A stretch of 62,295 nt of DNA from Bacillota bacterium (GTDB lineage: Bacteria; Bacillota; UBA5301), in assembly GCA_012735535.1 (NCBI GenBank), contig JAAYHC010000050.1:1-62295 (forward strand). The letters are read 5' to 3'. This document shows positions 53,033 through 56,906 of the stretch, one piece after another. Positions within the stretch are counted from its first letter, which is position 1. Every line of letters begins with the position of its first letter. The notes beneath the pieces are model-generated. The model was not told the origin of the DNA and ran no database searches. It saw only the letters and a program-made list of their open reading frames with translations. A program made the position numbers and the translations under genes.

Positions 53033-53704
53033 TCAGATGAGCTCCATCCGGCGCATGAGATCCAGATCATCAAGTAAAGCGAGGCCGCCCTCGACCACCA
53101 AACGACCGGCTTGCAAGATGAGTACCCGGTCACAGACCTGCCGGACCAGATCGAGGTCGTGTGTGGCAATGAGGGCAGCTTGTCTGGTGTTCTGAATAAT
53201 CTTGATGAATTCCCGGCGCCGTTTGGGATCTAAGTTGCTGGTGGGCTCATCCAACAGCAACAACTCCGGCTGCATGGCCAGTACGGTAGCCAAGGCAACC
53301 CGCTTTTTTTCGCCAAAACTGAGATGGTGCGTCAACCGTTCTTCGTAGCCGGCCGCATCGACCAGCTGTAAAGCTTGTTTAACCCGCGACCGCACATCAT
53401 CCGTCGTCAGACCGAGGTTTTGCGGCCCAAAGGCCACATCATCGTACACCGTAGTCATGAAGAGCTGGTCATTAGGGTCTTGAAAGACCAGACCAAGCGT
53501 ACGCCGCCGATCACCATCCACGCTGATCCGACCTTCGGGTTTCAAGACCCCGGCCAAGCATAACAAGAGGGTGGACTTGCCGGCACCGTTCAGCCCCAAG
53601 AGCCCGATTCGCTCACCGCGCCGGATCACAAAGGAGACCTCACTCAGAGCTTGCCGCCCATCCGGATAACGGTAACTTAATTTATCTACGACCACAAGCG
53701 CCAT
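53033..53704 (-). CDS. ECF transporter ATPase (CbiO/NikO)
   Basis: GLNGAGKST, FQDPNDQLF, LSFGEKKR, LDEPTSNLD. Confidence 0.92.
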   Translation of the reverse strand: MALVVVDKLSYRYPDGRQALSEVSFVIRRGERIGLLGLNGAGKSTLLLCLAGVLKPEGRISVDGDRRRTLGLVFQDPNDQLFMTTVYDDVAFGPQNLGLTTDDVRSRVKQALQLVDAAGYEERLTHHLSFGEKKRVALATVLAMQPELLLLDEPTSNLDPKRRREFIKIIQNTRQAALIATHDLDLVRQVCDRVLILQAGRLVVEGGLALLDDLDLMRRMELI

Positions 53705-54363
53705 AAATGCTCAGTCCCAACCACGAATACTAATACGCCAAGTGCAGAGAAAACGGCAATTTTATCAACCAGACCGTAAGTTACCGTCTCCGGCTTAGCC
53801 TCTGCCGAATAGCCGCGCAAAATCATCGCCTGATAAATCCGCTCTCCACGCTCATAGGTGCGCAAAAACAGGCTGCCGATCATATTACCAAGCACTCTGA
53901 GTTGTCGCAAATAGCCTCCGCCGAAATACCGCTGGTTCCGGGCGATCTCCATACGTTTGGCCTCGCCAAGCAGCAAATCCAGATAACGATACATAAATGA
54001 TAGCATCATCACCAACATGCTCGGCAGGCCCAAACGGTGCAAACCTTTAAGTAAGGACGGAAAATCGGTGCCCACCCCCAACACCGCCAAAGCAGCAGCA
54101 GATAAGAGGGCTTTTTGGACCAGCAAAAACAGCCGCTCGGGTGAGGCCGCCGACCAGGCTGCGAAAACCAGGACTACCAGAAGAAAGGGCAATACAAGCA
54201 GGGTCCGTTTGCAAACCCGCAGGAGAGGAGCCTGAAACAACCTGATCAATCCGGCCAGATACAAAAGATACAGCGCACCGCGCCACCACGGCAGCGCCGG
54301 ATCCAGTGCCACCGCCAAGATCAAGCAGAAGATTGCAATAACTCTGCTTTCTGGGCGTACCAA
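53686..54363 (-). CDS. ECF transporter T component (CbiQ/NikQ)
   Basis: FMYRYL..L..EA.RM..ARNQR, LFLRTYERGERIYQAM.LRGY. Confidence 0.9.
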   Translation of the reverse strand: MVRPESRVIAIFCLILAVALDPALPWWRGALYLLYLAGLIRLFQAPLLRVCKRTLLVLPFLLVVLVFAAWSAASPERLFLLVQKALLSAAALAVLGVGTDFPSLLKGLHRLGLPSMLVMMLSFMYRYLDLLLGEAKRMEIARNQRYFGGGYLRQLRVLGNMIGSLFLRTYERGERIYQAMILRGYSAEAKPETVTYGLVDKIAVFSALGVLVFVVGTEHLWRLWS

Positions 54364-54364
54364 T

Positions 54365-54652
54365 TTAACCCCTTCTCTCTCCGACCACTTTCGCTAAACC
54401 TAACGCGATCCCGAAAACCAGTATCGTCCCGATTATCCCCGCCAAACTGGTAGCTAATCCTTCACTGCTGATGCCGGGAACCAAATAATCAGGTATGGGG
54501 GAAGCAAGCGCCGGAATCTCGCTGGCGAGCTCGTCAAAACCGAGATCCTCGGCAACCCTTTCCAGCCCATCAGGCCAAGGCGAAGCAAACGGCGAAAGCA
54601 CGGCGGCCACAGCCAAAGAGATGGCCAAACCTACCCAGACCCATTTATTCAT
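54365..54652 (-). CDS. PDGLE-domain accessory subunit (NikN-like)
   Basis: SPFASPWPDGLERVA, SPIPDY. Confidence 0.9.
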   Translation of the reverse strand: MNKWVWVGLAISLAVAAVLSPFASPWPDGLERVAEDLGFDELASEIPALASPIPDYLVPGISSEGLATSLAGIIGTILVFGIALGLAKVVGERRG

Positions 54653-55289
54653 CAGCGGCACCTCCAAAAGTGAGTAAATCCGGACGCACTTTGTAAATGA
54701 ATTCTAAGACCGCCAGAGTGATGACACCCTCAACAAGCCCGATGATGGCATGTACACCGACCATCGCCGGCAAGGCCTGTCTTAAAGCGACCGCACCCGA
54801 AAGACTTAGTTCCACCGCGACCACGGCCGCCGATAAAACAATCGAGATCCAAGCCCCGCTAAAAGAACCGATCCGCCACCATTTCTCCGTGGTCATCAAT
54901 CGCTTGGCCAAATTATAGACCAGCCACCCGGAGCCGACCGCGACGACCCCCATATTAAAAATGTTCGCCCCGAGAGCCAAGAGTCCACCATCCTGGAAGA
55001 CCAGGCACTGTACGATCAGCACGGTCGCCATGATGAGAAAAGCCGCCCACGGACCTAGTAAAATCGCAGCCAGCATCGCACCCATGAAGTGTCCCGACGT
55101 TCCGCCGGCCACCGGCAAATTAATCATTTGGGCCGCAAAGATAAAGGCCGCCGCAACCCCCATCAAAGGCACCTGTTCTTCCGAGATTCGCTTAGCCTTT
55201 CCTGAGAGTGCAACAGCCATTACTGCACCTGATGCGACGGCTAGACTGCTCCAGGTCTTGGTGTCGAGAAATCCATCCGGAATATGCAT
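54645..55289 (-). CDS. ECF S component NikM/CbiM
   Basis: N-terminal metal-binding MHIPDGF, GTSGHF.G, GGLLALGANIFNMG, HAIIGLVEG. Confidence 0.92.
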   Translation of the reverse strand: MHIPDGFLDTKTWSSLAVASGAVMAVALSGKAKRISEEQVPLMGVAAAFIFAAQMINLPVAGGTSGHFMGAMLAAILLGPWAAFLIMATVLIVQCLVFQDGGLLALGANIFNMGVVAVGSGWLVYNLAKRLMTTEKWWRIGSFSGAWISIVLSAAVVAVELSLSGAVALRQALPAMVGVHAIIGLVEGVITLAVLEFIYKVRPDLLTFGGAADE

Positions 55290-55306: not shown

Positions 55307-55334
55307 GTGCTACAATTTTATTATTTCGTGTTAC
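55307..55334. promoter_or_regulatory. candidate nickel-regulator operator
   Basis: Direct repeat GTGCTAC-N14(AT-rich)-GTGTTAC between the promoter and the nikM SD. Confidence 0.5.
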
Positions 55335-55342
55335 TGTCACCT

Positions 55343-55371
55343 ATTATAACAGCTGCCGGGAGGACTGGCAA
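55343..55371 (-). promoter_or_regulatory. sigma-A promoter of nikMNQO
   Basis: TTGCCA-N17-TATAAT with TGn extension. Confidence 0.82.
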
Positions 55372-55440
55372 GAGCAGAAAATGCCTCACTCGCAAAGTAC
55401 AGATCTGATGTGTAAGTCCATTAAATCGGGTGAACACTAA

Positions 55441-55600
55441 TAAGACCAAAAAGACCGGCGAGCACCGTTGTCAGAAAAGATCTGCCTCTGTGCGGCACTC
55501 GCCGGAAAGAGCAAAGAGCTCCGGATTGTTCCTGACGGCGACCACCCGACAGCATTTGCTGTTTATCCGGATGAAGATCGCCGAATCTTATCTTTTTCTT
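55441..55600 (-). other. structured intergenic element (two long hairpins plus U-tract), unassigned
   Basis: Hairpins 55536-55583 and 55455-55505, both bounded by CGGCGA...TCGCCG; G-U pairs form only on the minus strand. Confidence 0.55.
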
Positions 55601-55619
55601 TTCCCGCAAAAATATCCTC

Positions 55620-56906
55620 TTACTTCAACATCTCGGCCAAATCGGCAGCCGGATTCGTGGTCAAGCGGAGATCAAAATTTTCCTGCAGAACCTGGAGAAC
55701 ATTAGGAGTAATCCAGGCCGGCGCCTTGGGTCCGAGGTAAATACCCTTAATGCCTAGAGCCAGTAAGCCCATCAAAATGGCCACCGCTTTTTGTTCCATC
55801 CACGAGAGCACCAAGGTCAGTGGTAAATCGTTAACACTGCAGCCAAAGGCCTCGGCCAAGGCCACCGCAATCTTGATCGCCGAAATGGCATCGTTGCACT
55901 GGCCCAAATCGATTAGACGCGGGATTCCATCGATCGTTCCTAAGTCAAGATCGTTAAAGCGGAACTTACCACAGGCCAGGGTCAACACAATCGTGTCCTC
56001 CGGCGTCTTTGCGACAAATTCCCGATAATGATCCCGATCCTGACCAGGGGCATCACAGCCGCCGACCAAGAAGAAGTGTTTAATCTTGCCGGCCTTCACA
56101 GCAGCGATAATCTTATCGGCCAGCGGTAGGACATTGGTGTGGCTGAAGCCGGTGGTCAGTTCATAATCACCAGGTGCTTCAGGTAACGGTGGCAAATTGA
56201 GCGCCTTCGCGATAACCGGGGTGAAATCATAGCCCTCGATATGGGTGGCCCCAGGCAAACGAGTAACACCGACGGTAAAAATGCGGTCGGCGTATTCCGT
56301 CTTGGGGATCAGCGCACAGTTGGAAGTAGCTAAAATCGCTCCGGAGAAGTTGCTAAACAAGGCTTTCTGGTCGAACCAGGCTTTGCCCAAATTGCCTTTG
56401 AGATGCGCAAACTTTTTCAATTCCGGATATCCATGGGCCGGTAACATTTCGGAGTGGGTGTAAACATTGATGCCGGTTCCTTCTGTTTGCTTGAGCAACT
56501 CATAAAGCACTTTCAGATTATGCCCGGTAACCAAGATACCCGGTCCGGCAAAGGTACCGGTCGGCACCGCAGTCGGCTGCATCTCACCAAAATGCTTCGT
56601 ATGAGCCTCTTTGAGCATCTCCATCGCCTTGACGGTCATCGTACCGGCTTCAAGATTAAGGTTTATGTGAGCGCCAAGGTCAAAGCTAACATTGGTGAGC
56701 GTGCTGTAAAGTGCCCGCGGAATAAAAGCATCGATCTCCGGGTCGGAATAGCCCAGTTCTCTGGCGTGATAGACATAGGCGCTTAATCCTTTGAGACTGT
56801 AGATAAGATTTTCCTGCAAGCTCTGGATATCCGCGTCTTTTTCGCACACACCGACTTTGGTGCAGGCTACTCCTCCCACCGTCTGTGCACACTGGTTACA
56901 GTACAT
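55620..56906 (-). CDS. hcp: hybrid cluster protein (hydroxylamine reductase), short form
   Basis: MYCNQCAQ..C..GVC, TGH, YTHSEMLPAH, TSNC, GGCD, LACGK, DLGQCND, SWMEQKA. Confidence 0.95.
   Translation of the reverse strand: MYCNQCAQTVGGVACTKVGVCEKDADIQSLQENLIYSLKGLSAYVYHARELGYSDPEIDAFIPRALYSTLTNVSFDLGAHINLNLEAGTMTVKAMEMLKEAHTKHFGEMQPTAVPTGTFAGPGILVTGHNLKVLYELLKQTEGTGINVYTHSEMLPAHGYPELKKFAHLKGNLGKAWFDQKALFSNFSGAILATSNCALIPKTEYADRIFTVGVTRLPGATHIEGYDFTPVIAKALNLPPLPEAPGDYELTTGFSHTNVLPLADKIIAAVKAGKIKHFFLVGGCDAPGQDRDHYREFVAKTPEDTIVLTLACGKFRFNDLDLGTIDGIPRLIDLGQCNDAISAIKIAVALAEAFGCSVNDLPLTLVLSWMEQKAVAILMGLLALGIKGIYLGPKAPAWITPNVLQVLQENFDLRLTTNPAADLAEMLK

Follow-up and report, generated by a model that had tools for sequence, protein, structure and literature searches.

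The 3′ stub of a hydrolase gene between hcp and a nickel/cobalt transporter operon, and its hairpin as a probable hcp terminator

What is the strongly folding stretch that separates hcp from the cbiMNQO operon in this genome? The window, that is, the whole 62,295-nt stretch of DNA analysed here, belongs to an uncultured Bacilli MAG of 1.94 Mb. On one side of the stretch lies hcp (55620-56906, minus strand; TIGR01703, E = 4.5e-188), which encodes a short, 428-aa form of the hybrid-cluster protein/hydroxylamine reductase and ends in a TAA stop codon at 55622-55620 on the same strand. On the other side is cbiM-cbiN-cbiQ-cbiO (53033-55289, minus strand; NCBIfam matches), an operon for a Ni/Co ECF transporter. 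The earlier note on this DNA had named both neighbors correctly and had described between them an unassigned structured RNA made of a purine-rich run, two hairpins, a linker stem and a tail. All of these elements are present on the minus strand, which is the relevant RNA strand, and they sit in the 3′ UTR of hcp.

The folding is real. Over 196 nt the minus strand reaches −74.3 kcal/mol (z = −3.9), with 0 of 200 shuffles as stable, and the plus strand −59.7 kcal/mol (z = −2.85). The strand asymmetry that had been ascribed to G-U pairs holds for both hairpins: hairpin 1 folds at −23.5 kcal/mol on the minus strand versus −17.3 on the plus strand, and hairpin 2 at −28.4 versus −24.0, because several G-U pairs of the minus strand become A-C mismatches on the other. 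The Rfam 15 covariance models gave no match at the gathering threshold, and the best matches of a permissive scan were at chance level (E = 2.4 and 8.4), bearing out the statement that the stretch matches no known riboswitch. The two hairpins also begin and end alike, in CGGCGA...TCGCCG, which would fit a dispersed, REP/MITE-like repeat, one of the options that had been proposed. The common ends are there, but at 28 occurrences the motif pair is no commoner in the genome than chance predicts (~32), and the whole element is single-copy within its own genome. In a DNA search of 60 relatives, the sole real match was an orthologous site in one genome, with the remaining matches at chance level. 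We regard a repeat as next to impossible.

The genome with the match (G001, uncultured Bacilli bacterium isolate binchicken_co173_424; locus L022) is the only other species in the window's genus, g1, and is referred to here as the sister species. G002 (locus L035), from another genus of the same family, serves as outgroup. G003 has no synteny at the hcp-cbiM locus and was used solely for the style of its hcp terminator. A metagenome pattern scan for hairpin 2 returned one contig, Ga0265293_10032369, which is near-identical to the sister species and so adds no diversity; a contig scan with the hydrolase described below found homologs outside the genus at ≤40% identity, of no use for covariation. 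Throughout the family hcp is of the short form, at 428-436 aa (window 55620-56906; L035 868-2178; G003 C31:16389-17669). The TIGR01703 profile is matched from about position 120 on, and its N-terminal part is missing.

The match to the sister species falls into three pieces, with extra DNA of ~0.7 kb and ~0.9 kb between them. Between hcp and cbiM, the sister species carries an intact ORF of 326 aa (from its ATG), convergent to hcp, with an N-terminal hydrophobic segment and profile matches to Abhydrolase_1 (7.8e-16), Hydrolase_4 and Peptidase_S9. Its nearest solved relatives are esterases, and the nearest structure is 5g59. The window retains the last 58 codons of this alpha/beta-hydrolase gene (DQKDRRAPLSEKICLCAALAGKSKELRIVPDGDHPTAFAVYPDEDRRILSF...; 55444-55617, plus strand). 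These codons share 69% amino acid identity with residues 251-309 of the sister hydrolase (E = 4.7e-16), the only match in the window's genome, and the DNA is 81% identical to the 3′ end of the sister gene. From 55444 the plus strand reads DQKDRRAPLSEKICLCAALAGKSKELRIVPDGDHPTAFAVYPDEDRRILSF in the window and SQKDRRVPLSEGIRLYAALAGKHKELWIVPDGDHATAFAAYADEYRQRILSF in the sister species. A search of the window's genome with the sister hydrolase revealed no second copy. The relic has neither a start codon nor the domain with the nucleophile GxSxG, and a TAA stands directly upstream at 55441-55443. To judge by the known layout of this fold, what remains would include the catalytic residues Asp (..D..VP) and His (GDH).

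Read against this gene, every element listed in the earlier note is the antisense of hydrolase codons, and the designation as an unassigned structured RNA has to be given up. The purine-rich run (55603-55586, minus strand) is the antisense of the T-rich codons ...ILSFSFP of the C-terminal helix, and hairpin 1 (55583-55536, minus strand) that of the catalytic-His region, DGDHPTAFAVYPDEDRR. The linker CCGG..CCGG stem (55524-55502, minus strand) corresponds to GKSKELRIVP, hairpin 2 (55505-55455, minus strand) to the codons DRRAPLSEKICLCAALAG, and the tail that directly follows it, TCTTTTTGGTCTTA (55454-55441, minus strand; U-tract UCUUUUUGGUCUUA), to the codons QKD. From these alignments, the element is almost certainly a relic of a hydrolase gene and not a new RNA class. 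Its rates of change would fit a relaxed constraint on the protein: between the window and the sister species, dN is 0.25 in the relic versus 0.02-0.09 in hcp and cbiMNQO, and dN/dS is ~0.4 versus 0.01-0.12 in the neighbors, both for 58 codons in one comparison.

Two plus-strand ORFs of 90-91 aa, at 55430-55705 and 55468-55740, were considered as genes and rejected; one is the relic frame continuing into hcp antisense. A Pfam search of ORF 55468-55740 found no match, and no Shine-Dalgarno sequence was seen by eye upstream of its TTG at 55468. On the same strand (55546-55599), hairpin 1 followed by AATCTTATCTTTTTCTTTTCC looks like a terminator, and the weak Rfam match to ncr1241 (E = 2.4) arises because of this resemblance. 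The T-run is simply the codons ILSFSFP. Such a structure could keep any residual transcription that comes from the hydrolase leader from reaching hcp in antisense.

The gap in the alignment of the window with the sister species is clean. About 718 bp are missing from the window (L022 3982-4699), a segment that begins at the start codon and ends directly ahead of QKDRR and the catalytic-Asp motif. Since query positions 187-195 are shared by both BLAST pieces, the deletion junction, as read from the MAG assembly, is ambiguous by up to 9 nt within the T-rich run 55446-55454. Upstream of the junction, the window retains the 5′ leader of the deleted gene (55393-55443, 51 nt, plus strand), with 79% identity to G001 C44:17928-17989, which sits just upstream of the hydrolase ATG. 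The direction of change follows from the outgroup, in which the order is hcp, a SulP-like membrane gene, a hydrolase (54% identity, convergent to hcp) and cbiM(N)-cbiQ-cbiO. Since the outgroup, too, carries a hydrolase at the corresponding place, presence of the gene is the ancestral state, and a deletion caused its loss in the lineage of the window. The reverse, a hydrolase tail gained in the sister species, is contradicted by this gene order.

The three loci differ in other ways as well. In the sister species the hydrolase ORF stops only 92 nt inside the hcp coding region (L022 4870-4961), so that the convergent genes overlap. In the outgroup the hydrolase ends earlier, and both the SulP-like gene, of 382 aa, and a canonical hcp terminator lie between hcp and the hydrolase; both are missing in g1. 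The sister species also has a gene for a 245-aa Rce1-like CPBP intramembrane protease between the hydrolase and cbiM (L022 3049-3786). Since this gene is absent from the outgroup and the window, a gain in the sister species is more likely, and it is probably a lineage-specific insertion of ~0.9 kb.

Does any of these folds have a function? Hairpin 1 is weaker in the sister species (−16.1 kcal/mol) than in the window (−23.5 kcal/mol), and the two versions differ by one compensatory pair, two compatible changes and two broken pairs. When the codons of the sister species were resampled, its hairpin 1 stability was reached in 911 of 3000 trials. A selected hairpin 1 was therefore rejected as indistinguishable from the coding background there. 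The linker stem drops from −7.1 kcal/mol in the window to −1.7 in the sister species. The earlier note had proposed that this stem and hairpin 2 are mutually exclusive folds; in the window the linker and the 5′ arm of that hairpin do overlap, but the stem itself is not conserved. We find no support for a selected structure in hairpin 1, the purine-rich run or the linker stem, which look like by-products of the former coding sequence. These data also bear on the idea that the hcp 3′ UTR, with hairpin 1, hairpin 2 and the U-tract, is processed into a stable sRNA that has its own targets and arose from the remains of a gene. Two stable hairpins ending in a terminator are the usual architecture of a 3′-UTR-derived sRNA, and it would fit that hairpin 1 is stronger in the window and that one of its outer pairs changes in a compensatory manner, from C-G to U-A. 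However, in the sister species the stability of hairpin 1 does not exceed what its protein sequence would give, and two pairs are lost. Nor is there a sign of a conserved unpaired seed, and divergence is highest outside the base-paired parts. An sRNA is improbable on this evidence.

For hairpin 2 the comparison gives another result. This 51-nt structure has a 13-bp G+C-rich stem with two G-U pairs and a 25-nt interior that holds a second, 6-bp helix, and its stability corresponds to z = −4.5. In a single pairwise comparison of the window with the sister species, the only two species that carry hairpin 2, the stem and U-tract differ at 1 of 35 nt, against 37 of 139 at the other positions of the 3′ UTR and relic (Fisher p = 0.001). 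Within the hairpin, the same comparison finds 1 of 26 nt changed in the stem and 7 of 25 in the loop (p = 0.024), and the U-tract (55446-55454) is the same at 9 of 9 nt. Third-codon positions point the same way, again from this one pair of species, with 0 of 12 differing in the stem and U-tract and 16 of 46 elsewhere (p = 0.025); pS in the neighboring genes is 0.23-0.66. The single stem change turns a G-U into an A-U pair, and in the inner helix two UU-to-CC differences turn G-U pairs into G-C. Hairpin 2 is thus constrained at the nucleotide level, although protein motifs conserved in the lineage of the sister species (D..VP, AALA) could account for some of the similarity of the stems.

In the sister species, where the gene is live, the codons of this segment were resampled as well. 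Synonymous versions of QKDRRVPLSEGIRLYAALAGK, folded in the hcp sense, averaged −14.5 ± 3.9 kcal/mol, and the most stable of them reached −29.4. The observed hairpin folds at −33.8 kcal/mol, a value reached by 0 of 3000 resamples, and therefore codon choice in the sister species is bent towards keeping hairpin 2. The orthologous codons of the outgroup form no comparable hairpin.

What would such a hairpin do? On the minus strand UCUUUUUGGUCUUAUU directly follows the stem; on the plus strand the corresponding sequence is AAAGAGCAAAG, with no U-tract past the hairpin, and the signal is therefore directional for hcp. When the T-tract sites of the genome are ordered by the stability of the 55 nt that precede them, the hairpin 2 site comes 9th of 2918, and the strongest sites are overrepresented directly past the ends of long ORFs (0.43 versus a background of 0.17). 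The deletion, too, stops directly past the U-tract. A compact terminator of canonical form stands within ~20 nt of the hcp stop codon in G002 and G003. In g1 there is none right after the hcp stop, and the first hairpin with a U-tract is hairpin 2, whose T-tract begins 165 nt past the stop codon; the interval from hcp to the cbiM promoter contains no other terminator. We consider it likely that hairpin 2 plus UCUUUUUGG is the Rho-independent terminator of hcp, with termination at this site predicted from the fold, its conservation and its position. As a terminator the hairpin is atypical, with a 25-nt interior and not a short loop of 3-8 nt, and with a T-tract broken by GG, and a simple consensus terminator scan did not call it.

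This shape lends something to the opposite reading, in which hairpin 2 is a functionless chance palindrome in ex-coding DNA and the hcp transcript ends at another site or runs on. It also speaks for this reading that the hairpin lies within coding sequence in the sister species and that its stem arms encode partly conserved motifs. Chance would nevertheless have to account for the resampling result, for stem and U-tract third positions unchanged amid such synonymous divergence nearby, for the absence of the hairpin from the outgroup ortholog, for its rank among T-tract sites, and for an interval that offers hcp no other terminator. We find a chance palindrome unlikely, and the hcp terminator remains our preferred reading of hairpin 2.

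The remaining question is whether the structure regulates the transporter. According to the earlier note it might be an attenuator of read-through from hcp into the nickel transporter genes, and a metabolite- or metal-sensing riboswitch or attenuator of this kind could work by a switch between the linker stem and hairpin 2. Its position upstream of a Ni/Co transporter, the stable fold that favors the minus strand, and the overlap of the linker stem with the 5′ arm of hairpin 2 in the window all fit. However, cbiMNQO has its own sigma-70-type promoter, TTGCCA-17-(TG)TATAAT (55371-55343, minus strand), with 11 of 12 consensus matches. It lies downstream of the hairpins, is conserved in the sister species and is recognizable in the outgroup. 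In the sister species the hairpins are inside a live gene on the opposite strand, and a distance of ~1.7 kb and two genes, which takes in an opposite-strand gene, separates them from cbiM. The genome of the window also encodes NikR (C12:6676-6903; NikR_C, E = 1.8e-31), which offers the usual protein-based control. The separate promoter, the 1.7-kb distance and nikR together make a riboswitch or attenuator role for the transporter very unlikely. With the origin in a coding gene, the lack of an Rfam match and the loss of the linker stem in the sister species (−1.7 kcal/mol) added, we give regulated read-through hardly any credence. What survives of the proposal is the stop itself: hairpin 2 and the U-tract plausibly halt transcription from hcp towards cbiMNQO, but as a constitutive terminator, an outcome that the earlier note had itself set against a regulated attenuator.

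An imperfect inverted repeat, TGTTAT-N11-GTAACA, spans the −10 box and start region of the cbiMNQO promoter (55320-55371, minus strand; GTTAC-A-GTAAC in the sister species). The repeat resembles NikR boxes described in the literature and is a candidate operator for NikR. Within the operon, cbiM and cbiN (window 54365-55289 versus L022 2007-2931) have a pS of 0.23-0.25, far below hcp (0.66), cbiQ (0.49) and cbiO (0.58), which could mean that the 5′ half of the operon was recently exchanged or recombined, or that synonymous sites there are under unusual constraint. In the outgroup, cbiM and cbiN form one 358-aa ORF (L035 4465-5541) with the CbiM profile at residues 1-160 and CbiN at 256-346, either a fusion or a sequencing frameshift.

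Taken together, we judge it quite likely that the stretch is the 3′ stub of a hydrolase gene and that its hairpin 2 serves as the hcp terminator. In this account a hydrolase gene once stood between hcp and cbiMNQO, on the strand opposite hcp, with the probable terminator already embedded in its coding sequence before the gene died, as it is, still intact, in the sister species. The deletion of ~718 bp left the last 58 codons as non-coding DNA, now the hcp 3′ UTR, sparing hairpin 2 and the U-tract, while cbiMNQO is presumably transcribed from its own promoter farther downstream. Homology, synteny, the loss in this lineage and the constraint on the nucleotides of hairpin 2 are shown here; termination at the hairpin is inferred. 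A longer history can be proposed only tentatively: g1 might have lost the SulP-like gene together with the original hcp terminator, a replacement might have been built within the hydrolase frame through the choice of codons and amino acids, and this replacement might later have set the limit of the deletion. The ex-coding 3′ UTR would then be possible raw material for an sRNA.

The locus carries a caution. A stable, strand-asymmetric, single-copy "structured RNA" without an Rfam match proves to be antisense to the final codons of a dead gene, and one comparison with a sister genome was enough to resolve its identity. It also illustrates how the extent of a gene loss can be shaped by signals that overlap the gene, in that a probable terminator inside the reading frame of a convergent neighbor is the only conserved part once the neighbor is deleted. 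Neither an intrinsic terminator nor a pseudogene fragment is a new kind of thing; a terminator that sits in a reading frame with a codon bias, and that marks the edge of a later deletion, is only mildly unusual. The result has no bearing on nickel/cobalt sensing or on nitrosative-stress regulation.

Several known systems place these features. The orthologs in the sister species and the outgroup resemble esterases and peptidases of the alpha/beta-hydrolase fold (Abhydrolase_1, Hydrolase_4 (S33), Peptidase_S9), with GxSxG, Asp and the GDH His in canonical order, whereas the window copy keeps the Asp and His segments without residues 1 to ~239, including the nucleophile Ser. As its sequence reads, this copy cannot encode the enzyme. 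Like 3′-UTR-derived sRNAs of the CpxQ and SdhX type, the stretch lies at the end of an mRNA whose terminator it would share; unlike them, it lacks a conserved seed, and its sequence is a recent coding relic. Intrinsic terminators of Firmicutes likewise consist of a G+C-rich stem-loop and a U-rich tract, are unidirectional and follow a stop codon of their own strand. The predicted hcp terminator departs from the usual form in being 51 nt long, two-tiered and ~115 nt past the stop, compared with 10-20 nt for hcp in G002 and G003. Overlapping 3′ UTRs of convergent genes are common (review PMC7821165), and the arrangement in the sister species, with hairpin 2 inside the convergent hydrolase coding sequence, is the same as that of terminators known to overlap convergent genes. 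Finally, as with gene remnants in reduced bacterial genomes, the relic is homologous to an intact syntenic ortholog, has lost its start codon and nucleophile domain, and shows a raised dN. It differs from the usual remnant in that the surviving fragment ends exactly at a structure that probably serves the neighboring gene, which suggests that this structure constrained the extent of the deletion.
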